DNA of 51,452 nt, the filler included, from Streblomastix strix (Eukaryota), in the NCBI GenBank assembly GCA_008636045.1. It is 3 parts of 3 records of this genome, joined end to end, with 100 filler letters (N's around TTAATTAATTAA, not from the genome) between each part and the next. Parts side by side here need not be neighbours in the genome. Positions count along the whole stretch, not along the records: positions 17,194 to 34,280 come from SNRW01000728.1; 2 more parts are not named here. One strand, written 5' to 3'. Of this stretch, positions 6,001 to 47,298 are shown in pieces. A model generated the notes under the pieces. It made no database searches and had not been told where the DNA came from. It was given only the letters and a program-made list of their open reading frames with translations. How positions within the stretch are numbered: the first letter of the stretch is position 1; the number at the start of each line of letters is the position of its first letter. A program made the position numbers and the translations under genes.

Positions 6001-9000
6001 TTATTATATAATATACGATATTATATGAATTAGGTATCATTAGCAACAATAAGAGGATCAAGACATGTTGGTGCTATAAAAGAGATGGTCGACTTTTGGG
6101 TTAATAGATTGGCATATTTCTCAGAATGCTTGGATGTCTGGTTAACATTCTAATAGAAATGGCTTTCTTTAGAACCTGTTTTCTAAAGTGATGAATTATT
6201 GAAGGTATAAAAGATATGATATAACAGTTGAAGAGAAAATTAAAATGAAATTCTTATATTAGTATTAATAACTATATTAACTTTATTTTACTTCCATTAT
6301 AACAATTCAATGAATAGGAATGGGCAAAGAAGTTCCATGAATGTGATAAGTTTTGGCATGATATTATGAGAGCTGTATATGAATTCCCTTCTGCTTTAAG
6401 AGCCACAACACAACCTGGTCTTGCAAATACATTTAGATAATATAATTAAACTATGGATGAAATATAGGTATTAATTATAAGATATAATTCATATTATCAT
6501 TCATATTATAATATATTTAATATTACTAGTCTGCTCTTAATGGACTTCTTAATACAAAACGTAATGCCTTTGGAAGATTCTTCTTTTTACCAAATGATGA
6601 TTTACTAGAAATATTGAAAGAAGGAAAGAATCCTATGAAAGTATTTAATAATATAATATACATAAAAATTTTGATGTTAATTCTTATAAATTATTATTTT
6701 TTTATTATTTATTACTTAAATTTATTCATAGGTGATGCAATATATGAATAAATTATTTGATAATATAAAAACTCTTGAATTTACATCATTTGAAGATATA
6801 AGAAAAATGGAAATAGTTGCGATGATATCAGGAGAGAATGAAAATGTTTAATTTGGAGATGAAAAAGTATATAATTAAAATATTTTATAATAAAAGAGAA
6901 TAAAAAAAGATAATGATATTGATATTAAAAATACTCTTTTTATTATTCACATATAAAATTATTTATTTCAGGTCATTCCAAGATCAAAACCTGTGGAAGT
7001 TTGGATGAAAGCAGTTGAAACATCAATGAGTAAAGTATTAAGAAAATTATTAAGTGAAGCCATTCAAAGGTATTTATTATAATAATTAAATCTTATTTTT
7101 AACATTATCCCAATTCTTTATATTTATTATATACAAATTAAATAGACATGCAATTCTCCCTCGACCGTAATGGATATTATCAACTAAAGCATAACTTGTT
7201 TTAGCTTGCTCATAAATTGTTTGGACAGCTCAAGTTGAGTCTTGTTTATAATCTGATAAGCCAAATGATGAATTAAAAAAATTATAATAGAGATGTGAAA
7301 AACAATTAGAAGAATTAACTGAAGTTGTAAGATCTGATTTAGATACTTTAGAAAGGGTATGAATGTGAATAATATTATTATGAATTTAATAATAAATATT
7401 ATTATAATATGTAATATAATAGATTTCAGTAGGAGCATTAATAGTAGTAGATGTTCATGCAAGAGATATAGTAGAAGATATGGTAAGAGATTAGATATCA
7501 TCAGTGAATGACTTTGATTGGAAGAAAAGACTCAGATATTATTGGGAAGCACAACCACTTAAATCAGGGAAGCCACCTTCATAGAAATCAATTACTCAAA
7601 TTAATTAAATAATAAATTTAGCAGCTGGTGGATCATTGGGAGGAAAAGAGAAAGGATTAATTGGAGGAATTGGATAAAGGACAGCCAAATAGTAATAATA
7701 ACAAATAGCAGAGAAAACATAATACTTTAATGACATGCCATAAGCAGATAGAAATTCATTCAATGAAGGAGATTGCATGGTCAGATAGACCAATTCTACT
7801 TTCAAATATGGATATGAATATCTTGGTTGTACTCCACGTCTTGTTATAACCCCACTAACAGATCAATGTTATATCACACTCACATCTGCACTGCATCTTA
7901 AATTAGGTGGTGCACCTGCTGGACCAGCTGGAACTGGTAAGACTGAGACATCAAAGGATCTTGCAAAGGCAGTTGCAAGATAATGTGTTGTGTTCAATTG
8001 TTCTGATGGTCTGAATGTTGATACAATGGGTCAGATGTTCAGTGGGATGTGTCAAGCTGGTGCATGGTTCTGTTTTGATGAATTCAATCGTATTGATATC
8101 GAAGTACTTTCTGTTGTAGCTTAGTAGATAAGAGAGATTTAGAATGCTCTTTAAGCAGGATAATCACCTTTCAGTTTCTAAGGAACTGAGATTCCATTGA
8201 ATCCAAATTGTGCTGTTTTCATAACAATGAACCCAGGTTATGCTGGAAGAACTGAACTACCAGATAATCTTAAGTCTCTTTTCAGACCAGTTGCTATGAT
8301 GATTCCAGATTATGCATTAATTGCAGAAATTATGTTATATTCAGAAGGATTCAAGACAGCAAAACCACTTTCATAAAAGATGGTTTAATTATACAAATTG
8401 AGTTCTGAATAACTTTCCTAATAAAGACATTATGATTTTGGTATGCGTGCTGTCAAATCAGTACTTGTAATGGCTGGATAACTTAGAAGAGATAATACAT
8501 AACTATCTGAAGATATTATACTAATCAGAGCAATGAGAGAATCAAATCTCCCAAAATTCTTAGCTGAAGATGTCCCACTGTTTGAAGAGATAGTAAGCGA
8601 TCTATTCCCAGATGCAATTGTACCCAAAAATGATTATGGAGCATTAATGAAGATGCTGGAAAAAGTGAGTAAATAAAAACACCTTTAATTGATTCCTAAT
8701 CAACTTCATAAGACGATTGAATTATATGATACATTTGGAGTTAGACATGGAGTTATGCTTGTTGGTCCAACTCGAGGTGGTAAGACTGTATGCAGAGATA
8801 TATTAGCAGAAGCAATGACAAGATTGAGAGAAGAAGAAAATAATCCAGATGAAAGATTCTAAACAGTTATTCAGAAGCAGATGAATCCTAAATCAATATC
8901 AATTGATGAGATGTTTGGATGTTTCTCTGAATTGACTCAAGAATGGAAAGAAGGTCTTCTTTCATATTTTGTGTCTGATGTTGTCAAAGATGATTCACTT

Positions 9001-12000
9001 ACTAAGAAATGGATTATTTTTGATGGACCAGTTGATACACTCTGGGTTGAATCTCTTAATACAGTACTTGATGATTCAAAGACTCTTTGCTTACCAAATA
9101 GAAAGAGAATCAAGTTGACTCCAACAGTTGCATTGTTATTTGAAGTGGAGAACTTGGATGTTGCATCTCCAGCTACTGTATCCAGATGTGGAATGGTTTA
9201 TATTGATCCTGCTAACTTCCCATGGAGAGCTGTTGTCAAATCATGGATTGAAGCATTACCAGATAATATTTGGGATTAAGATAGAAGACGAGTATTATAT
9301 TAAATGTTTGATAAATATATAGATCCATTATTAAATGTGATAGATGAATCAAATTTATAAGAATAAGTAAGATAGCCTACCCTTACCAAAGTATAAAACG
9401 TAATTAATATAATGGAATCACTGTTTACTCCTAATTTTGGTTTTGCACCAATATTTGGAGCAGATGCATAAGTTGATGAAGAAGATGGAGTAATGACTTT
9501 AACTAATGCAAAATAAGGAAGAGCAAAAAGATCTGCAATGTTATAAGCCATATAATAAGAAGCAAATAAAGGACCAAAAATAATTAAAGATTTGGCTGAA
9601 TTTGAAGGATGTTTAAAGACTCTATTCTATTTCTCATCAATTTGGGGAATTGGTGGATCACTTCATGACAAATCAAAAGATGAGTTTGATGCAATTGTTA
9701 GAAAGACAATTGATGGAGTATTCTTACCTGGAGTTGAATCTGTATATGAAGTAGTTCCTGATTAAGACACTAGGAAGATGGCTGTATGGTTAGTTCCTGA
9801 TTTCAAATATGAATTGGGGATACCATACTTCAATATATTAGTGCCAACAGTAGATACAGTAAGATTCTCATATTTAACAGATATACTAATTGAGCATAAT
9901 ACTCCAACAATGTATGTTGGTGAGACAGGTGTTGGTAAGTCAGTTGTTGCATATGATCTATTTGATAGAACAAGAGAGGAAAAATAGAGATTGCCTGTTA
10001 TAATAAACTTCAGTGCATAAACATCATCTGGAAGAACATAAACTATGATTGAATCTAAGTTATTGAACAGAAGAGATCATTTTGCAGCTCCACCAGGACA
10101 ATCAGTTGTTCTATTCATTGATGATTTCAATATGCCAGCACCAGATACTTTTGGATCTCAACCTCCATTGGAACTTCTCAGATAGATGTTGGGTACAGGA
10201 GGATGGTATGATAGAACCCAATTAGCTTTCAGAGCTGTTAAAGGAGTGTCAACAGTTGCTGCTTGTGGACCTCCAGGTGGTGGTAGAAATAAAGTATCTG
10301 AAAGACTGACTGCACTATTCACTTAATTCAATATACCCCAACCATCAGAGAAATCATTGGTCAGAATATTCAATTCAATCTTAATGGGATATATCTGTGC
10401 ATTACCATTCATTGGAGGTATGAGAGAGCTGGCTCCTTCAATTGTAAGAGCTTCAGTTGATTTATATAATCATGCATTGGCTGAACTTAGACCAACACCA
10501 TCTAAATCGCATTATGTGTTCAATTTAAGAGATCTTTCTAAAGTCTTCTAAGGGATATTATAAGTGAAACCAGAAGGACTGAAAGATGAAGAAGAATTTG
10601 CCAGACTCTGGGCACATGAATCTCTTCGCGTATTCTCTGATCGTCTTACAAATGATGAAGACAGAGCAATATTCTCAAAGAAGATTGTTTAATTGGCAAA
10701 ATAATATATGCATATAACTTGGGATCATGATGATATGTTTGTAAAGAAGACAACATTTGAAGAAAATTCTGATTAGTTGGATAATAAAGAATAGAAACCT
10801 CAATCAACTGCTGAATCAACTGAAGTTCCTAAATCTAATTTCTTACCAATTTGGAGCGATTTGGGGAAACTTCCTGCAGATGAAAGACCATATGAAGAAG
10901 TTACTGATATGAACAAACTATAGATTCAATTATAGAATTCAATCTCTGATTATAATCTGGATTGTGTAGCTAGAAAGACCAAAGAGATGGATTTAGTCTT
11001 CTTCTCAGATGCTATTGATCATATAGCCAGGATAACAAGGATCATCAAACAGCCTCGTGGGAATGCATTATTGGTTGGTGTTGGTGGATGTGGTAAGTAA
11101 TCATTGACAAGATTAGCTTCATTTATTGAAGGATATTAATGTTTTGAGATTCAATTGGCTAAGAATTATGGAATGAATGAATTTAGAGAAGATCTAAGGA
11201 AGTTATATGATATTGCAGGAGCTGAAGGATCTTCAGTAGTTTTCTTATTGAGTGATGCATAAATAGTATAAGAATCTTTCTTAGAGGATATTAATGGAAT
11301 ATTAAGCAGTGGAGAAGTACCATCTCTATATGATCCAGTATAAAGAGAATAAGTAATATAAAAGATTAGATAGAATTAGAAAGAAGATGAGAAAGTCCCA
11401 GAAGCTCCAGATGCAGTTATGGCATATATGATATAAAGAGTAAGAGATAAACTTCATATTGTGCTTTGCATGTCTCCAATTGGTGATTCATTCAGAAGAA
11501 GATGCAGAATGTTCCCATCTTTAGTTAATTGCTGCACAATTGATTGGGTTGCAAGTTGGCCTGAGATTGCACTTCACTCAGTGGCTCAGAAGTTTCTATA
11601 AGAAGCATCATTCATTGGAACAGATAAAACATTAGCAAGAAGAGTTGGAGATATTTTAGTTAGAGTTCATATAATGGTTGAAGAAGCTGCAGATCTATTC
11701 TATAAGGAGATGAAGAGGAAGACTTATGTTACTCCTACTCTTTTCTTAGAGATGATTACTCTGATGTTTAAGTTTATGAAAGAAAGAGATGATGCACTCG
11801 AAGAAAAAATCAATAAATATGAGAATGGTGTTAATACACTGAATGAAACAAAGAAGTCAGTTGCTGATATGCAAGTAGATCTAAAGAAGATGGAACCTAT
11901 ATTAAAGATCCAAGGAGAATAGATTAAAGAATTAATGGAGAAGATTCTTATTGATTAAACTAAAACAGCTGAGATTAGAGCTACAGTTACAACTGAAGAA

Positions 12001-15000
12001 GCAATGGTTCGTGTTGAAGCAGATAAAGCATAAGCATTAGCTGGTGAAGCACAAGCAGAGTTAGATAAGATCATGCCTGTCTTCCTTGAAGCTAATAAAG
12101 CTCTTGAATCTCTCTCAAAAGCAGCTATAACTGAAGTTAAGACTTTTGCTAATCCACCAGAAGGAGTTAAGCGTGTAATGAATGCAGTGTGCACTTTGAT
12201 GGGTAAGAAACCAGATTGGGATAATGCAAGATCACTTCTGTCACAGACTAACTTCATCCAGATGCTTCTTAATTTTGATATCACTGAAATAACTGATGCT
12301 GTTGATAGAAAGATGAGACCTTTCATTGAAGATCCAGATTTCAAGCCAGAAAAAGTTGAGTCTGTGTCAAAAGCAGCTGCAAATCTCTGTTAATGGACTG
12401 TTGCTATTGTTGAATTTGCTCGAGTGTCTAAAATAATCGAACCTAAGAAGCATGCAGCAAAAGTTGCATAAGAGAAATTATAAGACCTGTAAACCAAGCT
12501 TGCCATTAAATAGAAATAATTAAAAGATGTGGAAGATGCACTTGCAACAATGTAGGCCAACTTTGAAGCAAAGAAGAACGAATCTGCAGAAACAGAAGCC
12601 ATGATTGCATAAACATAAAAGAGGTTCACAAATGCAACACGTCTTGTAGCAGCACTTGGTGATGAAGGAGTTAGATGGAATGCATCATTGGATTAAGCAC
12701 GAGGATAAAAGAAGCTTATTCTTGGAGATGCTATTCTATCAGCGGCATGTTTGTCTTATTTGGGACCATTTACAGCATAATACAGATAAGAGCTATTAAC
12801 TGAATGGGTGGAGATTAAAAATGAATTGAATATTCCTGGTAGTGAAGTTTTTAACTTAGAAACTGTGCTTTCAACTCCTGTTCAAACAAGAGATTGGTAA
12901 ATACAGGGACTTCCTTCAGATCCACTTTCAATTGAGAATGCTGTATTAGTTACAAATACCAGAAGATGGCCTCTAATGATTGATCCTTAGGTATATAATA
13001 GAATAATATTATTTGTTTGATTCAATTCTTTCTTTATATTTTATATTATTTATATTACTTTAGGGATAAGCCAACAGATGGATCCGAGCAAAAGAAAGAG
13101 ACAATAAATTGAAAGTGATGAGACCAAACGAAAATAATTTTATGAGAACTTTGACTAATGCGATAAGAGTTGGATAACCCATATTGTTGGAAGATGTTGG
13201 AGAGTCACTTGATCCTTAAATAGGTCCTTTATTACTATAATAGACAGTCAGATAGGGAGGGAGAGTTATCATTAGACTGGGAAATTAAGATGTGGATTAT
13301 AATGCAAACTTCAAATTCTTTATTACAACTAAATTAGCAAATCCCCATTACTTACCAGATGTCTGCATCAAAGCTACAATAATCAACTTCACTGTCACAT
13401 CACAAGGACTCGAGGATTAACTATTGGCTGATGTTGTGAAGAATGAGAAAGCTGAATTAGAAGAAGCAAAAGATAAACTTGTTAGAGATATGGCAGCTGA
13501 TGCAAAACTATTAGTATAAACTGAAGCTAAGATTCTTGCACTGCTTAAGTCAACAACTGTTTAGCAATTACTTGATGATCTATCTTTAATTGAAACTCTT
13601 GATTAAGCTAAGAAAACATCAACTGAAATTATGTAAAGGGTCAAAGAAGCAGAAATAACTGAGAAATAATTAATGACAGCAAGAAATGAATACAGACCAA
13701 TGGCTGTGAGAGGATCTGTATTATATTTTGCAATTGTAGATTTAGCTTAATTAGATCCAATGTATTAATATTCACTCATATATTTTAAGAATGTATTTGG
13801 ATTGTCGTTGACAACAACATAAAGGAATAATAATATAAATATAAGATTAAAAACTCTTATTGATGCATTAACTGAATTAGTGTATTCCAACATATGTAGA
13901 GGTCTCTTTGAGAAGCACAGATTATTATTCTCATTCATAATGGCTACTTAAATAGCAAAGAAAGCTGATGAAATATGTTAAAAAGAATGGGACGTATTTA
14001 TGAGAGGAGCTTCTTTAGCATTATAATCTCCATCTAATGATACAAAAAGGATTAATCCATAACCTCCTTAGTTTATATTCCCTTCTCAAGAAGAAATTAG
14101 AGAAATGGAAGTATATATTATATTATATTATATATTATATAATAATAGTTAATATAAATACAAAATGAATCAGAATAAGAGATATTATTTATTATATATT
14201 TCTAATACTTATTATTTCTATTATTATATAATTATAGCTATAAAACGAATAAACCCCTTAATCTCTTAATTCATCAATCCAAACTCCTATTACTTAATAA
14301 GGTATAAATTAATTATGTTTATCAATTTATTGTAGTATTAGAATTTATATTTATCAATTAATCATATCATCTCTTATATATTATTATATTTGATAGGATC
14401 AAATGTAATACAAAATGGAAGTATATTCCCTTATTTAGGAACAATCGAATAGAAATCCTGGAATGAATTAGTAGCATTGGATTAAAGGTAAATATTTTGT
14501 TAAAATATATTTGTGTAAATAAACGAATCACATGTATTAATTTATGAACATAATTGGTTATTATTATTATTATTATTATTATATGATTAATAGATGGGAT
14601 GAAGTATTTGGAGGATCGTCAAAAGCATTATCTGAATCTAAGGACTAAGTTGAATAATGGATTTAAATATTATAAACATCTGAACCAATGCTATCTACTT
14701 TTCCAAGGTTTATTATTAGTTGAAAATATTAAGAGAATTATAAAGATAATATCCAATAATATTTTATATATTTTTTTTATGTATTATCCATGTAATATTA
14801 GATGTGTTACGCTTGCTCCATCATCACTAACATAATTATAATAAAGATTAACATTATTTTAAAGATTAATTCTAATTAAAACAATAGCACCTAAAACACT
14901 ATCTAATTGTACAATGACATATGTAAGAGAAAGATTAGGTGAAATATTTACAAGATCTCCTCCTCTTGACCTTGAAAAAGCTTATGGTGACTCATCCAAG

Positions 15001-17093: not shown

Positions 17094-17193
17094 NNNNNNN
17101 NNNNNNNNNNNNNNNNNNNNNNNNNNNNNNNNNNNNNTTAATTAATTAANNNNNNNNNNNNNNNNNNNNNNNNNNNNNNNNNNNNNNNNNNNN
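17094..17193. other. Artificial contig-joining spacer (44 N + TTAATTAATTAA + 44 N)
   Basis: Exactly 100 bp with a 12-mer that gives TAA in all six frames; identical spacer at 34281-34380. Confidence 0.97.
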
Positions 17194-18920: not shown

Positions 18921-21900
18921 ATGTCATTTTCAATATTGTTGATTTCTATCGTTATCCTTAGCGAAAGTTTTTCACTTTTACATTCCGAGACATCATAAAA
19001 ACATATTTCAACACCTTCACTTCACTTTGAAACCAACCTGTCACCATCTTGCAAGTCTTCAAACGAACCTTGCTCGTTCAACATAAGCAATAACTATAGC
19101 GGGTTAGATAATTCTACTTAGACCGCTAAAACCATTACATCTGCACTATCAATTGCCTGTTCTGATAGATACATCATCACATTGATGGATGCTACACACT
19201 TCGAATATATCAACATTAGTAAAACTTAATCTACACCAATTTCTATTACGGTTTATTTTTTAAATCAATTTTTTAAATTTTTTTATCTTCAATTTTTCTT
19301 TTATTTATTCATAATCTTAATTAGGGTGGAGCTACTTAGGATGAAAAGAGCATCAGAACATCATGGACAATTAGCGCATAATCTGACAATATAATCTATC
19401 TTAACAACGGCGAAGTAACACTTCATAATCTAGAATTCAACTACACAAAAATTAGTAGTACAATTTTGCCAGCAGTATGTCTTATTGAAGCTTCGGAATC
19501 AAGAGTATATTATAAAACACTTACAGTAACATCGTGTGTCTTCAACGGTCTTGGACTTGGGAGCAGTAACACTGTAAGAACGATGATCATTGCGTATTAT
19601 TTAGATTCATTAACTCTAAGAGATGATGTTTTCTAAAATGCGCATATTACTGAAAGTAGATATGCTGTCTACAGTGTTTCAAACAAGACAAAAACGTCAT
19701 TTTTTGTGGAAAGATCGCAATTCCTGAACATATAGATTGAATAAGCAACTGGATTAGGCGCTCTTGTAATAACACTTGCTGGTACAAACTAGACAGCATT
19801 TATCAATTAGTGCAACTTCACAAACTGTTCCTGCATTAGCCAGGATAGCATTTCTGGAGCTATTTATCTATCCTCTAATATATCTAGTGCCAGCTAGAAC
19901 TAGTATATAGTATCAAATAACATATTCATAGGCAACTCTGGACATGAGACTGGAGCTCTATATGCAACTGGTATCCCATCAAGAAATTCTTATGTCTCAA
20001 ACTAGTTCTCTGATAATAAGAAATATGGATCAGATCAACAAGGTTGCGATTCGTCAATGTTATGGCCTAGCTATACTGAAACACAAACAATAATAGAAGC
20101 TAGAGAGAAAGTAAGTAAATTGTTTGAGCCAAGTTAATCGATGAGCAATTTTAGTTTATATTTCAAATTTGTTGTTAACAGTGCTACTGATGTTGAAGGG
20201 TATGTTAATATTAATCCTACAATAGAGTTATGCAAGTCTAAAGAGTTAATAACCAGTAGCTGTATGTGTGATCCATATTCTACTTCATATTCACATGATC
20301 AATGTTTGAATGACAAAGTTTGTGTTGTGGATATAGTTAATTAGAATAATATAACGTGTCCATGTTTGAGCACTGGTGATCGAAGAGCTGGAAAAGGATA
20401 ATGTCCAGCATATTGTGTTAAAGGAAATGTGACTACAAATTGCACATGTGATTCGAATATAACTGGTTACACAGTTTAATAATGTTAATAGGAGAAGTTA
20501 TGCACATTCAATTTATCTAATCAAACAAATGCCACCTGCCCATGTTTAAATACTTCTGATCCAAGAGCTGGTAAAGGATAATGTCCAGCTTATTGTGTTA
20601 AAGGCAAAGTGGATTCCACTTGTGTATGTGATACAAACCTTACTGATTATACATTTTAGCAATGTCAAACCGAGAAGAAATGTATAACAGATTTGATTAA
20701 TCAGAATAATTTGTCTTGTCCATGTTTGTCAACTGGTGATCCTCGAGCTGGTAAAGGTACTTGTCCAGCTTATTGTACAGCTTAAGATAAGCCAACTACT
20801 GATTGTGTTTGTGATTCAGGTCCAAATGCAAGTTATCCTTATTCTACATGTTAATCGAATAAGAAATGCACTGCAAGCTCAAATTCTACAGTACCATAAG
20901 ATTCATGCACTTGTTCGAGTACAAATTATCCATCTGGTTGCAAATGTCCAACAGATTCATCACAACTGACCAATATTCCATAAAATAGATGTGAATGTCT
21001 AAAAACTGGAGATCCCAGAGCAAATGGAATCTGCCCAGCATATTGTGTGAAAGGATAAGTAACTGCTAATTGTGAATGTGACACAAACTCTTCTTCATTT
21101 CCTTTATCCAATTGTCAAACTGAGAAGAAATGTATAACAGATTTGATTAATTAAAATAATATAACTTGCCCATGTTTGAGCACTGGCGATCCTCGAGCTG
21201 GAAATGATTAGTGTCCAGCTTATTGTGTTAAAGGATAAGTAACAACAAATTGTACATGCAATACAAATACACCTGGTTATACTGTTGATTAATGCCAGAA
21301 AGAGAAGTTATGTGTTATAGATCTAATTAATTAAGCTAATACAACGTGTCCGTGCCTTCCTACTGGAGATCCAAGAGCTGGAAAAGGATAATGTCCAGCA
21401 TACTGTATTAAAAATCAAGTTAATTAATCATGCGTGTGTGATACAAATATTCCAGGTTATACAGTAGCTCAATGTCAGACTGAAATTAAATGCAAATTTG
21501 ATTTGGCTAATCAAACAAATGCCACCTGTCCATGTTTAAATACTGGAGATCCTAGAGCTGGAAAAGGATAATGTCCAGCTTATTGCACATCCAAAGATTA
21601 ACCATCTTCGAACTGTGCATGTGATATTAATTCATCTTCATATCCTCCATCTTCATGTTAATCAGAAAAGAAATGCAATGTTAGTTCAAGTTCAACAGTT
21701 ACAAAAGATTCATGCACATGTTCTGGATCAAATCATCCAACTGGTTGTAGATGTCCATCTGAGACTACACAACTAACTGGAATTCCAATAAATCAATGTG
21801 AATGTTTATCATCAGGTGATCCAAGAGCTGGAAGTACATGTCCAGCATATTGCTTGAATGGATAAGTTAATACAAGTTGTGTTTGTGATTCAAATAATGC

Positions 21901-24433
21901 TTCTTTCCCTTATACAACTTGCGAAAGAGATAAAGCTTGCACCATCAATTTAGTTAATTAAAGTAATATAACATGCCCATGTTTGAGCACGGGTGATCCA
22001 AGAGCTGGATTAGGTCAATGCCCAGCATACTGTATTAAAGGATATGCAAACACAACATGTGCATGCGATACTGGTTCAACATCTTACCCAGCTGCTTAAT
22101 GTTAGAAAGATAAACTCTGTATAACAGATTTATTACATTAAAATATAACTGACTGTCCTTGCATGACATAAAGCGATCCAAGAGCTGGCGGTATTTGCCC
22201 AGCTTATTGCACATCAAAAGATGAACTTACTCTCAAATGTGTTTGTGAATTAGGATCTACCATATATCCATAAGCAACATGCGAGAGAGATAAATTATGC
22301 GTTGTAGATTTAATTCATCAATCAACTGCTAACTGTCCATGTCTAGAATTTAATGATCCAAGAGGTGAATCAGTTTGCAAATAAACAGAAATTGATCCAA
22401 CTGATCCTATAATTCCTGATCCATCTGAAAAAGATCCCGAAACTGAATAAGAATAAGAAGGTGGAACAAAATAAGATGATGAAAAAAAGACTGAAAAAGA
22501 AGAATCAAGTTCTTCGAGCTTGATTTGGATTATTTTCATTGTTATTGGAATAATAGCCATAGTTGCAATTATTGTTATCGCATTGTTCATCTTTAGATCG
22601 AGAAATCAGAAGAAATAAATGGAAATAAAAAAGAAAAATCAAGAAATTCAGATGGAAGTAAAAGAAAGAATAATAGAAGTTGAAAAGCAGAAAATATTAA
22701 ACCCAAAGAATTAATAGTTTTAAATTCGTCAAATTTCTCAATTATAACAGAAAAAATAATAATCTGCATCTTCATCTTCTTCTTCTTCTAAATAAGAATA
22801 AATTTAACCTCAAACTATTTCTCAATCCGAAACATCTTCAACTTCTGCTTCATAACCACAATAAGAAACACATCTCATTCCTGATCTATCTTAATCACTG
22901 ATGTCAATATCATCTTCAATGATATCTTTATCTTCTTCAATGGATTCACTTTCTTAATCATTGAAATCAATATCTTCATAAAGTACATAAAGTAAACTCT
23001 CTGATTCAATGAGCTCGCTATCATCTTCTACTTATTCTACTGCTTCATTATAATCATCTGAGGATGAATAACTATTTATATCAAAACGATATAATCTGAC
23101 TGACAAGAAGAAATAATAAGAAGGATAAACTTAAATTAACACCAAAACTAAAAAGATAGATAATAAATTAAAAAAGAAAGATTCAAATAATAAACTAAAT
23201 AAATCTGAAAAGTAATCTGATTTGAATAAAGAAAAAGAAAAAGAAAGTGAATCAAAAAGAAGCTTATCTAAAGAGAAAGAATAAAAATTAAATCATTCAA
23301 AATCGAAGATCAGAAACAATGATGAAATTAAATCCAATAAAACAATAAAGAAAAAGAAGATGAATAAATCATAAAGTGAAACTCGTGAAAAAGAATAAAA
23401 AGATGAAATTGATGATAAAAACCCAATGAATAAATAAAAGAAATAGGACAAAAGTCGAACGAGAAGTAAATCAATGACAAATAAAGACAGGTTTATATTT
23501 TAATAAATCTTTTTATATAAATTGATTTAAATTTCAATGATTTCAATTATTTTTTTATTTATATTTAATCTTTCTATATTATTCTAGACCTGCCCAGAGT
23601 AGAACTAAAACCAGAAACAAAGTTCATTCAGTGAAAGACGATGATGAAGATTCCAGTTCTAGTTCCAGTGAAAGTTCAGATAATAGTAATGATTTTAAAG
23701 ATAAGAAAAAGCAAAATTCAAACAAAAAATCAAGAAAATCAAAATCTCATTCAACCTAATAAAAAAAGAGAAGTAATTCTAAAAAGAAATAAAATAAAAA
23801 AACGCATGATGATGAATCTGAAAGTTCTAGTGAATCTTCATCATATTCATCAACATCATCATAATCTTCATCTTCTTCATCATCATAATCTTCATCTTCA
23901 TCAATATCTTCTTCTTCTAAATCTCCTTCTAAATAATCTCGCCATAAACCAGTAATAAAACCCTTCTATAAATCAGCTGAATTGGATTAAAGCTTCAAAA
24001 CTGCATCAGAAAGTCATCGTGGGAGCATTAATGAAGCCGATTCCGAAAGTGTTGTGTCAATTTTGACATTGGGTGATTTGAATGAGAAAAGTTCAATTCA
24101 ATCGAGTAATGGTGGTTTAGATTAATCACAGGCATCTAGCTCATATCTGTGGGATATGTACAAGTAGTACATGGTGTGAAACAAATAATTTATTATTATG
24201 CTTAGATAAATGAATAATTTAAATGAATTTGAACGTTTTTTGTTTTATTTCAATTTTCTTATTTAATTTTTATTTTATTAATGATTGTCATATTTTAATG
24301 ATTTCAGCCATCAGATCAGAGATCTTAAAGTAATGTTGAGAGTATCAATACACGAGGAAGAAAAGATGCTGAATCACCAATCACATAAAATTCGATCAGC
24401 AGTTTTGAATCAGAAAAATAAGAAAATTAATGA
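18921..24433 (+). CDS. Type I membrane surface protein (~1735 aa): signal peptide, putative parallel beta-helix domain, Cys-rich repeat stalk, TM helix, long Ser/Lys-rich tail
   Basis: Exons 18921-19250, 19325-23490, 23588-24173, 24308-24433 (sum 5208, divisible by 3). Hydrophobic N-terminus MSFSILLISIVILS; FxNC/FxGNSG..GALY-type repeats; 11 CxCLxTGDPRAG..CPAYC units; TM LIWIIFIVIGIIAIVAIIVIALFIF (~22520-22594). Without the last intron the CDS ends at TGA 24179. Confidence 0.85.
20330..22380 (+). repeat. Coding tandem repeat: 11 Cys-rich ~60-aa units with an ~810-bp higher-order period
   Basis: (G/S/N)D(P/R)R anchors at 20375, 20555, 20735, 21008, 21185, 21365, 21545, 21815, 21992, 22172, 22352. 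Confidence 0.93.
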
Positions 24434-25118
24434 AGAATACTAAATTGTTGAATAGCTGCAATATTTTTTGAGATTTATAAAGACATATCTGAAACTGAAA
24501 TTGATTTAAATCAGTTGTTTGAATTTATTAATATTCCTAGTACACTTCACCTCTCTTTGTAGATTTCTATCTAGAGTTTGATTTTCTATTTTAAACGTCT
24601 TTTTTTTTCGTATCTTTTATTAGTCACATAATTTTATTTAATAGTAAATATAATAATTTAATATATTGATAAAATTTTAGTACTAAATGAACCAGTTATA
24701 TTTTTATCTTAGTTTGGTGCAATAAATGTTCATTCTTCAGATTATTATTCAAATTCAATATCAATGATACAACTTACAACACAGGTGAATAAAAGCAAAC
24801 TTCACTTTTATTTTCCCTTAAAACAATTCTTTACTTTGAAAGAGTTTGTTATTTATTTATTATTGTTGCAATATTCATACAAACTGTATATATATTATAT
24901 TTTGATAAAATATTTAACTTTTAATTCCTAAATCTAATAATAAACACTACTAAACAAAAAATATCAATTTCTCACCAATTTCATAATAAAAACCAAAATT
25001 TATTAATAAATTAATAATATTTAATAGCTACTCAAGTACATCATTCAATTTTAATCTATATTTACTACAATTTTACCTTGTTACCGACAATATTCATTTT
25101 TTATTTTTAAGAATTAAA

Positions 25119-28100
25119 ATGATTCCGCATCGTAGACCAATAGGTAATGTGAATTAGCAGTTTGAAGAACAGCGAAAGTTATTGAGCGATATTAAGAGAT
25201 AAATAGGTTTATATTAACATTTTTTTATTTTAAAAGTCGAGAAATTTTTTATTTTTATACCGTTGTATTGATTTTTAGAGTTCTATTTCTCAGACGAAAA
25301 TTTACCGCTAGATAAATACCTGAAGAATGAGATTAGCAAGGACCCTGAAGGATGTATGAGTTAATTACATTTGTTTCCAAAAATAATGCTAAATATTCAA
25401 TATATTTATTCAGGGGTGTAAATCGAAGTACTCCTGACATTCCCCAAATTAGCAGCCTTGACAGTGGACAGTGAAGTTGTTTCACTGGCGCTTGAAGATT
25501 CAAAGATGCTTTAGGTATCTGATGACAAAACAAAAGTGAAACGGATTGGAGAAGTTCAGAGTTTTGAGGAATATGATCGTAGAAGTTTATATGCAGTATG
25601 CAAACTCTTGTTATGTTGTAAATTATTCTTTAATTAATAATTTAAATTCTGTTCTTTATATATGGAAAATGAAGAATGGTTTCCCTTTAGCTACTTAACG
25701 AGAAGAAATAGAGTTGCTATTTGGGAAGTTCGGGAAGATTGGAGCTGTGTTTCAACTTCGAGATATATATGAAGATCGCTTTAATGTATTTCACATTATT
25801 TTTTCAATAGTTATTTTAATTATAATGATTATTTATTATCAACCACAGGGCTGTGCACGAATTACCTATGCGCGCAGTGCTGATGCTGAAAGACTGCTTG
25901 CTTCTAAAGATCAACCAGATGTTAAATAGATGCTTGTTTTCACACCATAAAGGACTTTAGGTTAGAGGGATCCTGTTTAAATTATTGTCTAATCAAGGTA
26001 AGAAACTGATTATTATATATATATTGTTTTCATATATATTGTTTTATATTTTATATTTGATAACTGTTTTAACTTAGAAAAGAATATTATAGTGATGAAA
26101 ACAAGATCTAAAAATAGTAATTAAAGGATAGTATGCAAATTTGAATTGATTCATTGTCATAGTTATTTATTATTAACATTCTTAGATTGGACTTTGACAG
26201 ACAATATACCATCAATTATTGTAGATCGCCTTCCGCAGTCAACTGATGTTCAGAAGAGCCTTGAATAGATCTTCAAAACTTATATCCCACGAAGAATTGA
26301 TGTAAGAGGGCTGAGAACATCAAATGCTCGTGTTTATGCGTTTATCAGGTTTAAAACAGAAGACGAAGCATAAAAAGCTTTGGATGGAATTAATGCTGCA
26401 AATGCTTAAATAGGAGGGATTGTTATTCGTGCACGAAAATACCTGAAAAGCGAAGAAATGGAAAAGTTGAATATGAAACTCAAATCAGTATATATAAGAG
26501 TAGATTTCTTGCCAGATGAAACAACAGAACAAGAAATCAAAGGAATATTTCAAGCTCGCGCTCCAATCAAGAAGGTGGATATTATTGTTGCTCAGAAACA
26601 ATTTAAAAGATGCGCAGTTTTGACTTTTGATACAGCTGACCATGCAGAGAGAGAATTACTCCAAGTTCGAGAGAAAGAAAAGTTAAATGGAAGGATGAAA
26701 ATTAAAGGCACAGTTATTCGTATTCTTTTCTGCACGAAGTTTGAGTTTCAAAGACTGATGAACATAGAAATGGCTTCACGAGCAAATCTTACTCTCCACC
26801 CCATAATGGGAGCAGAAACTCCTGGGAAATTGATAATTGATGGTCTTCATCAATCAACAACAGAAGAAACACTACGAAATGAACTGGAGGATTTCAATCC
26901 AGGAAATATTACTTTCATTCTGAGAGGAACAAGAACAACTCGTGGAATTGCTGAAATTACTCTTCAGAACTTTGAAGAAGCTTAAAGAGCAGCAGAAGAA
27001 ATGAATATGAAAGAAATTGATGGATTACAAGTTCGTGCTTTTGCTGATGGAAATGCCTATGAAATTCGAAACAATAAAACGAGACCTGATCAAACAGATT
27101 CTTAAAGACCATCTTCAAAAGTCTTTCATGAAGAGAGTTAGAGAACTGTATTCATATGGAAAGTACCCGTGTCTGCCACTCTTGAAGAGATAAAAGATTC
27201 TTTTTCTGACCCAAAACCGTAACGCATTGTTCGTGTTGTTGATCGAAGCACAGGATTGTTCAGAGATTTTGCAAATGCCATTTTCAGTTCAGTTGCTGAC
27301 AGGGAAGTGAATTTAGTGAAGATGAAGAATGAAGTTGTAATTAAAGGGAGAAGATGTCGAATGAAGAGATTTGGAGATAGGAGTGAAGAAAAGAATGTTG
27401 GAGGATTATAAGGAATGAGAACTAATGAAAGAAATGTTCAACAATCAGAAAAACTCCACATTGCAAATATTCCACCAAATATAACTGCATTTGCACTTAA
27501 GGACGCTTTCTCAAAATTTGATGGTGAAGTATAAATATAAATTGTAACAGATATTAGAACTGGACGTTCACGTGGGTTTGGATTTGCAACTTTCCATACA
27601 GTGGATTAAGCCAGAAATGCTTTGCAGAATCTGAATGGCAAATGCATTGCTGGAGGAAGTTCAGGATTGATACTGTCTTTTGCTCGTTCATCCATGGGCA
27701 CGAATGCGAAGCTGCATGTTTCAAATATTCCTCCAAATGTAACTGAGAAATAATTGATGGATATATTTAGGAATTATAGAGTGAAAGCTGTTAATTTTCT
27801 CCCATAAAGGAACAATAAATTTAATTCTATGGCTGGACGCACTTCTATGAAGACCAGAGCTGCATTTGTCATCCTCGAGGAAGAAAGATTTATAGATTAA
27901 GCCGTTTAAGATATCAATAACAAACCTATTGGAGGATTTATGCTGAATGTGAAAAAAGCACTTTCAAATGAAGAAAAGTTGCAAAGAAAGAGCGAATTCT
28001 GGAAGATGATCAAATAGAAGAGTGTCAACATAGATGATTTGGAGAAAGAAGTGAACTAGTTGTAATAGAAAGTATAGGATATGCTGATATCTGCACAAAA

Positions 28101-29325
28101 ATCACGCGAATATGTTGAATAGAAAGAAATAGACCAGAAAATTGCTCAAGCTGGAGCAAATGCAACTGATATCTATGTTGCAGGTTTGTCTTCAATTCAA
28201 ACAGATGCGAAGCTTCTTGAGTTGTTTAAGCCGTATGGAGCTGTAAAAGCTTTTCTTATCAGGGATTAAGTGACCAAATAATCAAAAGGATTCGGATTTG
28301 TGACCTTTCTTCAGGGAAGCGATGCATAAAGAGCAACAAATGCTATAAATGGTAGAAATGATGGAGGAAGAAGAATAAACATCAAACCAAGCAATAATCC
28401 ACCAAGGTTTAATCAAGATCCAGACTTTGAGAAATCAAAAGAAATTGCGCGTTCAAAGGAAATATAAGCACGAAGAGTCTAGGCTGAATTTGTTGCAGCC
28501 ACACAAGAACTTCAAAACAGGAAAATAAGAATAATGAAGAGATAATCATAAAGTGAATAGAAAGGAAAAATATAGGAAGAAGAAGATGATGAATCAGAAT
28601 CCGATGAAACAAATGAATCTGGATAATGTCCAATCTGTATGGATGATATGGACAGTGTGGAGACGTGTTCATGTTCAGGTGAAGGGCACAGATTATGCTG
28701 CACGTGTCTTAAAGCATCACTGGAGAGTGATCTTAATGCAGGCGTTCTTAACATCTCATGTGTAGCTGATAGAGATTGCACAGCTGAATACAGCATGGAT
28801 ATAATTGAGAAAGTTCTGGATGAAAAGGACCTCAGGCGTCTGCAGGAATTACAGGCGCTTGAAGCAGGTGGTGGAACAGCAGACGAAGAAGATAAGAATA
28901 AAAAAGGAGACGTTTAATAAGTGAGATTAAATGAGACTGATTCTGACCGAAAGAAAAGAGAAGACGAAGAGTTTGTGAGAGTGATTGATATTGCAATGAC
29001 AAACGCTCGTATCAGGCACTGCCCTAAATGTGGGAAAGGTATAATAAAAGAAGAAGGTTGCAATAGAATTTCATGCCATTGCAAAGCAAATTTTTGCTAT
29101 TGCTGCGAAAAAGATATAACAGATATTACATATGGACACTTCAATAAAAGTGTTTCCTAGTGCCCATTATACATGGGCGATAACATGAAAGCTGAGTAAG
29201 AGCGTCAAGTGGACAGAGCTTTGAAAGCAGCAGATGTGTTTTCTAGGGAACATCCTCATTTCAGAGATGGTGAGGTGAAACTGAGGAGCTACTTAGACAT
29301 CTGGGCTGTGGGATATGAATTTTGA
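25119..29325 (+). CDS. La motif + 8 RRM + RING1 + Rcat (RNF216/TRIAD3-like) protein, ~1265 aa; putative RNA-binding RBR-type E3 ligase without IBR
   Basis: Exons 25119-25206, 25279-25353, 25414-25595, 25675-25785, 25849-25997, 26078-26130, 26186-29325 (3798 nt). La motif IKRQIEFYFSDENLPLDKYL...GWVQIEVLLTFPKL...VSDDKTKVKR. RNP1 motifs RGFGFATF and KGFGFVTF. RING CPICMDD...GHRLCCTC...CVADRDC. Rcat CPKCGKGIIKEEGCNRISCHCKANFCYCC...YGHF. The last exon has no in-frame TGA before 29323. Confidence 0.92.
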
Positions 29326-33471: not shown

Positions 33472-33946
33472 TCTGATAAAAATATAAGATAATACAAAAA
33501 AAATAGTAAATTTTTGAAAAAGCAAAGTTACTTTATTTTTGAAAAAAATGTAAAGAAAATGAAAAAAAAAAAGCAAATCAATTAATACAAATTACTTCAT
33601 AAGATATATTTTACAAATAAAACAAACGAAACAAATAATTATTACTCAATATAGATTGGATGCAAAGATAAATAATTCAATTCATTGATTTCGCATGCCC
33701 TTAAATGTTTTAAAATATATATATTATATGATATAACTCAAAAAATGTTTAAATAAACTGCATTACATAAATACTTATTATAAATACGCCTTTATTATAC
33801 TCTTATTTTGAATTTTTATTTTTTAACCATTTTTGCTTTCTTTTTGTAAAATCTATTTCTCTCATAATCACTTGTATAATTTGGTTATGATTTATAAAAT
33901 AATATATTATAGTTGAAAAATATATTATTAAATAGAGCTGTTAAAA

Positions 33947-34229
33947 TTCGTCAAAGAATATTGTTTTTACGAACGAAATAGTCAGTAAATTTAAGTATTT
34001 TGACGAAAATAACTTAATAGCAGGGTTTTTCCTAAGAGCAAAAGTTTGGCGTAAAAACTAATAGTATGGCGTAAACATCAAAAAAGTTTGGCGTAACGAA
34101 ATATTAATTTAATGAAAATTTTATAGTAAATGCGTGGCCCGAAGGGCAGAGCCCAAAAATTTTTATAAGTTATAATAAATTTTAGGGTATTTAGCGAGGC
34201 CCGAAGGGCCGAGCGAGAAATTTTTATAA
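33947..34229. repeat. Cluster of short direct/inverted repeats and GC-rich GAA mini-hairpins at the contig end
   Basis: ttcgtcaaa/tttgacgaa inverted pair (33947, 33999); tggcgtaa three times (34040-34096); gcccgaagggc..gagc..aaatttttataa twice (34137, 34199). Confidence 0.6.
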
Positions 34230-34280
34230 AATTTATTGATATATAATATTTATTATTGAAAACAAGTGACGTAGGAGCAA

Positions 34281-34380
34281 NNNNNNNNNNNNNNNNNNNN
34301 NNNNNNNNNNNNNNNNNNNNNNNNTTAATTAATTAANNNNNNNNNNNNNNNNNNNNNNNNNNNNNNNNNNNNNNNNNNNN
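34281..34380. other. Artificial contig-joining spacer (44 N + TTAATTAATTAA + 44 N)
   Basis: Identical to 17094-17193. Confidence 0.97.
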
Positions 34381-44700: not shown

Positions 44701-46864
44701 ATTAGAATGTGTTTGGTTGAAATTGTTATTATTTTTGTTATTATAATAATTGTTATTTCTATTGTTATTATTATTATTAGATTAGTTGTATTTATTTAGT
44801 TGAATTTGATGGTGTTAAAAGTCTTTTATTTCTAGATATTATTGGTTAAATTCTACTAATTGATGGAGCAGTAGATAGAGTTCTTAATTACGATTACGAT
44901 TATTAATTATAGTCGTTCTTCGTCTAATTATAAATTTGCAATCTCGATTATGACGAATAGCTTTGTAATGACTTATCAGTTTAGATTTCATATTCCTTAA
45001 ACATATTATTTGCATTTTCTTGTGCTCTTTGCATTCTTCAATTTCCAATTGCTGTCATCTCTTTGATTTTCTCAACTTTATTCTAATCACTCAATAATAG
45101 AATTTACTATGAAGGAAATGTTGATGGAGGCCCAATATCTTCATCTACTCCCATTGAATGAAAACTTGCTGTATCATTATCATATTAATTTTGATTATCT
45201 TATTAAATTTCATCTGAATCTGAATTTGAATCTGAATCATTATTTGATTTTTTTAATTATATTTTATATAATTATTATTTAGATTATTATTATGATTTAT
45301 CATTCTTTCTTTCGCTTGTTTTAGCACTTCCTGATTTCCCAGTTTTACTTCTTCTTTTCTTCTTCTTTTTCTTTTCTTATTAACCAAATCGAATTCGAAG
45401 GAATTTTTGTATCTCTTTCTTTTATGTTGAATATTTCTCAACTACAGAATGCAAGATCTCAATTGATTTATTCACTTCCTCGCCCATAGATGGATCCAAT
45501 ACTAATTTTTCTTCTTCTTTCTTCTTTTATTCTGATATTTACTATTATTTCAATGTCTGAAACTAATTTTCTTCGTTTTCAAAGAACTCCAAAGCATCAA
45601 CTTCTTTAATATTCGAGATCTGATATTCCTGTTTTATTACTTTGGGTAACAATTATCGTGATTAACTCAACTTCTCCAAATCTCGCCAATCTCTCAGTCC
45701 TCTTTATTCTAACAGAGATTATTATTATGGATGATTCTTTTATTAGTTGAGATATTCAGTTAGTGAAACTTGTGAGCTGAATTGTTAAGGTAAATTATTG
45801 TTATCATTATTTTATTATTGTGTGTTTGAAGGTTGTATAATTAATGGTTATATTTCATTATCATCATTATTTTCTCCCTTTTCTGTATTCTATCCTACTT
45901 TAATTGATTCATTTTCTTCAATTTCTTTATTTTATGATTCTAAATCTGATTCATTTTCAATTGAATCTTATTATAATTAATTTAATTCATCCAATTCTTA
46001 TAATTATTTTTAACTTTATTTTTTCATTGCTTCAGATCCTTCCACTTAACCACTTTGTTATTCTTATTCTTATTATTATTACTTTTAATCATCAATATTT
46101 TTCTTCTAATTCAATTTAATTAACTTCCTTCTTTCTCTTTCATCCTTCTCATCAAGTATTTCATCACCAAACTCCAATTTTCTAGTCGCCTATTAATCCA
46201 AATACTGCTTCAATTCCTGCATCATCTACTCTCTCTTTTCAGTTCCTTTATCATGTTATCTCAGTAAATAACTGATCCGCGTATATCCAATATCTACATC
46301 GTCATTTGAATGTATCAGTTAATAGATGTCTTAATCTGTGACACCGTTGATCCTTCTTTACGCTTTGCAGACTTTCCAGTGGTTGAGCATGGCTTGCTCC
46401 ATATGTGATCTGCAGCAGTATCGGGATACGGAACATTGAGTACAAACACACTATTGAAGAATTTTCTTCTGCTTTTCTTTGTCAACGACTTCAACATTGT
46501 TGTATAAATCCATTATCATCTTTAAACGGTCTTTTGTGTTTTCGTCTTCGAGTTTTTCATAGCAAAACTCGCAGAATTTAGGTCGGATGAATGAAATACC
46601 AAGACGTATAAATTCCCATCTATCAGAATCTTCTAGGCTGTAGTAAGTGATTATTCCTTCTTAGATTCGAACTTGCTGACTTTCAAGGTCGCTCACAACT
46701 GTCTGAGATGAAGTCGTTCGTAGTTTTGCACTGGAGGTACGAGCATTAGCAAGTCTGTACTAAATAATAGCATAGATAGTAAACACAAATGGCGGAGGAG
46801 AGAGTTCTACAATATCGGATGGAACAACTAGGCGATCTGCGGCCCGTAGTGTTTGTCCTTCCAT
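35758..46864 (-). CDS. Giant (~3537 aa) low-complexity Q/E/K/S-rich coiled-coil protein with an N-terminal MYND-type zinc finger
   Basis: Exons 46864-43446, 43316-42492, 42362-37238, 37122-37044, 36923-35758; all splice phases are mutually consistent (10614 nt). FCEFC...CTQCSVSRYCCRSHMEQAMLNHWKVC at 46367-46573. The many TTA/CTA/TTG runs on + are poly-Gln on -. Not every codon was checked for TGA. Confidence 0.75.
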
Positions 46865-47298
46865 ATGTCTGATTAATAAAATAAAATAAATTAAAAATAA
46901 AAAATATATTCAAAAATTAAGTGTAAAATTAAAAAGTAACACAAGTAGGAGATAATATTTCAAAATTAAATTCTAAACATTTAATTTGAAGTTTATAAAA
47001 AGAATTATTAAATTCTACCAATAATTAATAATCTGTTAAAATATTATATATAAATAAGTAATGTTTATGTTTATATTTGAATGACGATCCTGAAGATAAA
47101 TACTTTTTAACATAAAATTATGCTTAACTCATTATAAACATAGTATCTAACATTGTTTTATCAAAAAAATATTTATCTTGTTCTTGTTATCAAAATTTTA
47201 AATTAAATGGTGATATATTAACGAATACCTACTAAGTTTAATGAACACACAAAAAATTAAAATAAGTGTAAGGCTTTCAAAGAATTATGATCGTTACC

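Follow-up and report, generated by a model that had tools for sequence, protein, structure and literature searches.

The RBR ubiquitin ligases are described in a 2014 review (PMC3940038, in the part of it available to us) as always carrying RING1, BRcat (the IBR domain) and Rcat together, this triad being called invariant and all three domains taken as required, and the RBR signature was itself defined with the IBR included (accessible part of PMC2904391); the same review called the function of BRcat a mystery. Later work placed the allosteric ubiquitin site on the IBR, which forms half of that site, and RNF216 mutants in the RING1-IBR interface lose baseline activity. RNA-binding ubiquitin ligases (RBULs) are a known class in which CCCH, KH, RRM or K-rich domains occur, the accessible text of PMC5707401 listing no La-module type among them, and a survey covering 345 proteins with a La motif in 135 species (PMC7928011) records one lineage-specific pairing, of La with DUF3223. 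Here we describe, in a 51,452-nucleotide stretch of Streblomastix strix DNA (hereafter the window; assembly GCA_008636045.1), a gene at 25119-29325 (+ strand) which belongs to a family expanded in S. strix, in which a La module and an array of RRMs are joined to an IBR-less, RNF216-like ligase core. We read its product, at a probability of roughly 0.45, as an RNA-tethered RBR-type E3 ligase minus the ubiquitin-activated site, which would dock on RNAs ending in 3'-oligo(U) and ubiquitylate the proteins bound to them. An earlier sequence-only reading of this DNA had proposed the fusion but overlooked both the absence of an IBR in the ligase module and the membership of a paralogue family.

The gene has seven exons (25119-25206, 25279-25353, 25414-25595, 25675-25785, 25849-25997, 26078-26130 and 26186-29325) which give one open reading frame of 1265 residues under translation table 6, where TAA and TAG encode Gln; without splicing, a table-6 open frame of 1261 codons spans 25540-29325. 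All six introns are GT-AG, 55-80 nucleotides long and of 15-22% GC, compared to 35-40% GC in six of the seven exons (exon 6 has 19%), and the 3140 nucleotides of exon 7 run uninterrupted from RRM2 to the stop codon, a single exon having been claimed earlier for RRM2 to Rcat. The product of this splice model is letter-for-letter that of P0002 (S. strix EZS28_004919 / KAA6399553.1, a hypothetical protein), a separate gene prediction which supports the splice calls; as it derives from the same 17,087-nucleotide contig and thus brings in no second assembly, it is not independent evidence. The acceptor of intron 3 (25672-25674) reads AAG instead of YAG, and the same acceptor is implied by the NCBI model.

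The fusion from the La motif to RING2 is almost certainly one gene, in agreement with the sequence-only reading. The window is made up of contigs of 17093, 17087 and 17072 nucleotides, with joints at 17094-17193 and 34281-34380 (44 N, 12 bases, 44 N) across which the parts are not genomic neighbours, and the gene lies on the middle contig (17194-34280). A second S. strix protein, P0007 (1370 residues), is encoded on another contig of 8,208 nucleotides and carries a La motif (42.1 bits) and an array of RRMs longer by one unit, followed by RING1 and RING2; it is collinear with P0002, aligning with residues 7-520 (32% identity) and 538-1254 (34%) and so crossing intron 6. Because P0007 repeats the whole La-to-RING2 order on another contig at 32-34% identity, and because four further, partial S. 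strix paralogues lie on other contigs (P0006 repeats the order from RRM6 to RING2), a misjoin is unlikely. In X1, a DNA run from which the present sequence may stem, a single contig covers 26717-31601 without differences and so is continuous from RRM4 to RING2. That two adjacent genes, or a misjoined contig, were taken for one gene is thus very improbable, even though the NCBI model rests on this very contig, the X1 contigs break at 26154-26183, at the end of intron 6, and 26574-26716 is absent among the listed X1 pieces. A separate downstream gene is disfavoured because the first Met codon within exon 7 (26458) lies downstream of RRM2, and were intron 6 (26131-26185) to be retained, the in-frame TGA that follows after 4 codons would leave just 40 nucleotides before exon 7.

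Retention of intron 6, or early polyadenylation, would give a product of 223 residues holding the La module only, and so the main product could be a housekeeping La protein, with the ligase form a second isoform doing another job. The stop comes directly after RRM1, La proteins without an RRM2 exist (PMC7928011, accessible part), and the X1 contig with the La module has twice the depth of the remainder and terminates at intron 6. Set against this, P0007 retains the fused layout despite a decayed La pocket, a weak search brought up no short annotated copy carrying this La module, and contig depth is no copy number; we consider a housekeeping La quite improbable. The search for short proteins used a word index that missed human La, and it returned 2 of 1529 candidates, a fragment of this gene and an unnamed La-motif protein; a similar search with the La region among proteins of 695-2214 residues, which missed P0007, also returned two, out of 1243: P0002 and a protein with a La motif from a brown alga. 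Neither search carries information on a separate oxymonad La. The X1 contig with the La module (23862-26183) has a depth of 43, with pieces upstream of it at 49-88 and those after the break at 18-19; this step may stem from unequal amplification or from a further copy of the La module.

The ligase module has the parts of an RBR core except for its middle. RING1 and the helix that follows it (28627-28863) have all eight zinc ligands of the C3HC4 type, and the pre-RING2 helix and RING2/Rcat (28957-29166) have another eight, giving 16 of 16, with the catalytic C1178 (29059-29061) aligned with the catalytic C688 of RNF216. RING1 loop II, between ligands 7 and 8, has five residues compared to two in canonical RINGs. 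At the place of the IBR is a charged, Cys-free linker (28864-28956) modelled at low confidence (predicted local distance difference test, pLDDT, below 50), and the 80 residues between RING1 and RING2 hold no Cys at all, hence no IBR. The same was found in all five S. strix rows of the alignment (63-84 residues and no Cys from the last RING1 Cys to RING2), whereas the six rows from outside the species (P0156 of M. exilis with P0048, nearly a copy of it, three proteins of B. nauphoetae and Talaromyces TRIAD3) all have 109-138 residues with 7-8 Cys there. The helices on both sides of the lost IBR are still present. We considered whether the C-terminal zinc domain might be the IBR, with RING2 lost, and rejected this as it scores 49.8 bits to RNF216 RING2 and 0.3 to the RNF216 IBR.

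RNF216 is the closest solved ligase by both sequence and fold (top PDB matches), bearing out the affinity proposed earlier. With RNF216/TRIAD3 (PDB 7M4M, 8EB0) the module shares RING1, the post-RING1 and pre-RING2 helices, a RING2 with catalytic Cys and with Arg at the His position, and the C-terminal helix; relatives of RNF216 type in oxymonads are MONOS_6753 (M. exilis) and KAK2949534.1 and KAK2958173.1 (B. nauphoetae). In the predicted structure RING1 resembles the RBR RING1 1wim (Z 11.4, root mean square deviation (rmsd) 2.1), model residues 175-291 resemble RNF216 652-771 (Z 9.7, rmsd 4.5), and the predicted C-terminal helices (29167-29307) match the post-RING2 helix of RNF216. P0002 differs from RNF216 in the N-terminal La module and RRMs, in the shortness of the RING2 zinc-finger insert described in the available part of PMC7458406, and, as from the oxymonad relatives, in having no IBR.

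RNF216 residues described in PMC9834252 can be mapped onto P0002: the donor-ubiquitin residues E664, I672 and I683 correspond to D1154, I1162 and I1173, and the RING1 positions 517 and 519 that contact the E2 correspond to I1036 and M1038. Of the allosteric ubiquitin site, the RING1-IBR helix is present and the IBR half absent. From the mapped residues, C1178 and the absent IBR, it therefore appears that the E2-binding and catalytic halves were kept while half of the allosteric site is gone. The triad His is absent, with R1180 at its position, and RNF216 is reported to be active without that His (PMC7458406, accessible part); in HOIL-1, according to the available text of PMC9834252, a long RING1 loop closes off the direct RING route. 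RING2 is the best-conserved domain among the S. strix copies (60-62%), and the catalytic Cys, which is no zinc ligand, is retained in five of five copies despite pairwise identities of 41-65%. The protein is probably an active thioester ligase, as judged from these residues; for want of an IBR it is no RBR in the strict sense, yet likely works like an RNA-tethered RBR.

Loss of the IBR may instead have uncoupled RING1 from RING2 and left a dead or crippled ligase, the module serving as an E2- or ubiquitin-binding scaffold on an RNA-binding protein. This would fit with the domain triad being called invariant and the IBR required, with the dependence of RNF216 baseline activity on the RING1-IBR interface, and with decay elsewhere in the family, since P0006 has lost a RING1 ligand (Leu at one position) and RING1 is incomplete in the partial P0010 and P0011, P0010 also having Asp at one RING2 ligand. 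It is improbable all the same, as five of five copies keep the catalytic Cys and the donor-ubiquitin helix, and as parkin can be active in fragments that lack RING1 (PMC3940038, in the part available), so that the module tolerates cuts.

At the protein's opposite end, the La motif (residues 22-100; 25182-25550, exons 1-3) was matched by Pfam La at residues 25-82 with 73.7 bits (cut-off 37.1), and it leads directly into RRM1 and its trailing segment (25581-26130, exons 3-6), the two aligning with human La as a single stretch (73 bits, E 1e-19). Genuine La scores highest against this module (73 bits), followed by LARP7 (67), while LARP1, LARP4 and LARP6 reach at most 50, mostly over the La motif alone. 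The pocket residues are as named in the sequence-only reading: Q28 (encoded by TAA), F31, Y32, D41, Y43 and F64, the equivalents of human La Q20, Y23, Y24, D33, F35 and F55, of which four are identical and two conservative (Y23F, F35Y). Q20, Y23 and D33 have been tied to UUU-3'OH binding (PMC9705548, accessible part). P0002 thus shares with genuine La (SSB) and LARP7 the direct passage from La motif to RRM1 and six pocket positions kept or conservative, but it differs from them in its E3 module, in the want of a GK/R tail (no such repeat was found in the P0002 sequence) and in seven further RRMs where those have a single atypical RRM2. Its C terminus is RING1-RING2, and the 11 Pfam families that matched at E <= 1 include none of the marks of LARP1, 4, 6 and 7 (DM15, PAM2w, LSA, C-terminal xRRM). 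For RRM2 as a La-type xRRM the PDB comparison gave no support, there being no La or LARP7 RRM2 in the 60 of 64 PDB rows shown for it, and the Pfam RRM_3 match was weak (E 0.72).

Eight RRM units were found, as counted from sequence before, with starts (25581, 26212, 26485, 26824, 27142, 27451, 27709 and 28168) within about 10 nucleotides of the earlier figures. Pfam RRM_1 matched seven stretches (253.5 bits), and a profile built from matches outside Streblomastix gave all eight, seven of them at independent E-values of 7e-5 or below and RRM5 at only 0.1. AlphaFold2 predicts all seven exon-7 units, including RRM5, in the strand-helix order of an RRM, in a model with mean pLDDT 70.7 from an alignment of 4 rows. 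RRM2 (26212-26436) is supported by profile, PDB match and AlphaFold2; RRM3 (26485-26730) and RRM4 (26824-27045) by profile and AlphaFold2, RRM4 being 41-47% identical to its paralogues with neither of its RNP motifs aromatic; RRM5 (27142-27372) is weak by profile with an RRM fold in the model; RRM6 (27451-27687) has a canonical RNP1 and is supported by profile and PDB match; RRM7 (27709-27960) by profile and AlphaFold2; and RRM8 (28168-28395), by profile and PDB match, has canonical RNP1 and RNP2. The RNP1 aromatics of RRM6, 7 and 8 are retained in four of four aligned copies, and the protein very probably binds RNA. The model also predicts a 65-residue helix (model H594-658) between RRM7 and RRM8 (27961-28161). 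Ahead of RING1 lie a predicted helix and an acidic spacer (28405-28617).

The array raises the possibility that an active IBR-less ligase acts on messenger ribonucleoproteins, with the RRMs selecting U/AU-rich or poly(A) tracts inside the RNA and the La module an accessory giving no 3'-end guidance. The best PDB matches of RRM6-8 are Pab1, nucleolin and HuD/HuR/Sxl, and of RRM2 Sxl/Hu; the RRM6-8 aromatics have outlasted the pocket in P0007; and LARP4 and LARP6 bind other RNA with the pocket residues intact (PMC4288179, available part). These RRM scores are generic and no specificity can be assigned from them, the shortest-branch copy P0002 has the whole pocket, and the La module is nearest to genuine La, and so such targeting seems unlikely, although it ranks next after 3'-end guidance.

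In the reading that we favour, the La module would cap the UUU-3'OH end, as on RNA polymerase III transcripts, while RRM6-8 would hold the RNA body. RING1 would then bind the ubiquitin-charged E2 in open form, and the flexible linker of about 30 residues would presumably let RING2 reach it, so that ubiquitin could be handed to C1178 and from there to a nearby protein on the same RNA. RNA-driven proximity would replace di-ubiquitin as the switch, since the allosteric site has lost the half that the IBR contributes. Given the rest, 3'-oligo(U) is fairly probable as the real target of P0002. A fuller version, in which a two-domain RING1-Rcat ligase is active without an IBR and uses RNA as its switch, La takes it to RNA polymerase III ribonucleoproteins, and the fast-evolving paralogues were retargeted to other RNAs, is somewhat doubtful.

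Several observations weigh against this reading. The six La residues are also found in LARP4 and LARP6, which bind stem-loops or poly(A), and so are no predictor of 3'-oligo(U) binding (PMC4288179); the pocket of P0007 reads Q, L, I, D, S, Y, so that only Q and D are unchanged, F55 has become Y, and three residues (at Y23, Y24 and F35) are lost. For these reasons the 3'-end guidance that the sequence-only reading had put forward is kept only as a plausible leading guess for P0002, drawn from its sequence. RRM3 and RRM4 have RNP1 motifs without aromatics, and RRM2 and RRM6-8 are closest to poly(A)- and U/AU-binding mRNA proteins. In the ligase core, RNF216 R660 is replaced by V1150, P0006 has the RING1 ligand loss, the IBR is held to be invariant or required and forms half of the allosteric site (PMC3940038 and the RNF216 mutants), and the placement of RING1 relative to RING2 is not fixed in the model (predicted template modelling score 0.40). 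The X1 break at intron 6 and the fall in depth across it count on the same side.

The family was delimited with phmmer, using RRM8-RING1-RING2 as the query against 1.84 billion representatives, which gave 10,725 proteins at E <= 0.001. Among the best 150 of these, the part examined, 141 had RRMs only, 8 had a RING2-like domain and 1 was a fragment of this gene; only P0006 and P0007 (2/150) had RRM and RING2 together, and no fused relative was found outside S. strix, though weaker ones elsewhere could escape this list. P0006, P0007, P0010, P0011 and P0034 each come from a different contig than P0002 but likewise from S. strix; three carry the mark of a partial record, and P0034 is without the RING part. 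In P0007 and P0034, RRM4 is followed by a unit which is absent from P0002, and P0034 has no clear RRM5. In an unrooted tree of 10 rows, a branch with support 95/96 separated the five S. strix rows from the others, P0002 having the shortest branch among them (0.19); P0048 (identical to P0156 over this part) and P0034 were left out and there was no outgroup and no other RBR subfamily. As it is unrooted, the tree dates no event. In the IBR of P0156/P0048, the RNF216-like protein of M. exilis, a charged stretch of about 25 residues is inserted between the first and second Cys pairs, possibly a halfway state toward IBR loss. None of the oxymonad-type matches scanned (P0048, P0125, P0152) had a La motif or RRM.

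Scans of JGI metagenomes, with back-translated patterns that may miss Gln coded by TAA or TAG, confirmed none of 203 pattern matches in the first set; one of a further 97 (L001, 38% over 40 residues) was confirmed and then rejected as chance, lying in a bacterial-looking membrane-transporter locus. We infer that genes using TAA and TAG for Gln are poorly represented in standard-code protein collections. Fungal clusters in the ESM Atlas, with scores of 0.76-0.81 (all under 0.9), join RRM or KH domains to an RBR-like core and are leads in that respect, but they have the IBR in 99-100% of members with no La family listed, and the fungal RRM+IBR proteins did not reach the best 150 of the 10,725.

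That the system was undescribed, as claimed, stands for the particular fusion: a literature search (titles and abstract starts, few subscription journals) gave no description of a La motif with an RBR and RRM, and the accessible part of the 345-protein survey does not mention ubiquitin, RING or fusion. It does not stand for the principle, as RNA-binding ligases are already a known class (PMC5707401), with which P0002 shares, by its domain content, the union of an RNA-binding part and an E3 part within a single polypeptide; the predicted ligase differs in being an RBR-derived thioester type without IBR. For RBRs lacking an IBR, one paper, on zebrafish parkin, surfaced in the literature as far as it was accessible. 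The suggestion of antiviral or transposon surveillance finds no footing, since nothing in the analysis bears on defence. The family has so far been seen in one uncultured protist of the termite gut. In it nature has carried out a deletion on the RBR ligases, in which the IBR was called invariant and its role a mystery (PMC3940038). If the reading is true, a La-motif layout absent from that survey also ties the reading of RNA 3' ends to ubiquitylation in one chain. The RING1-linker-RING2 fragment, of about 240 residues, is expressible and directly assayable.

Elsewhere in the window, 45041-46909 (- strand) has a Cys/His cluster which we take to resemble a MYND zinc finger, with no Pfam match there. 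The region 19166-23644 (+ strand) encodes a long protein whose repeats are rich in Cys, with a single predicted membrane span at about residues 1125-1145; a Pfam search gave no match at E <= 0.001, and the product looks like a surface protein. An LCAT-family fragment at 33680-34280 (- strand) is truncated by the contig end, and 7384-14602 (+ strand) encodes a dynein heavy chain motor region with strong Pfam matches to AAA_6-9 and MT.

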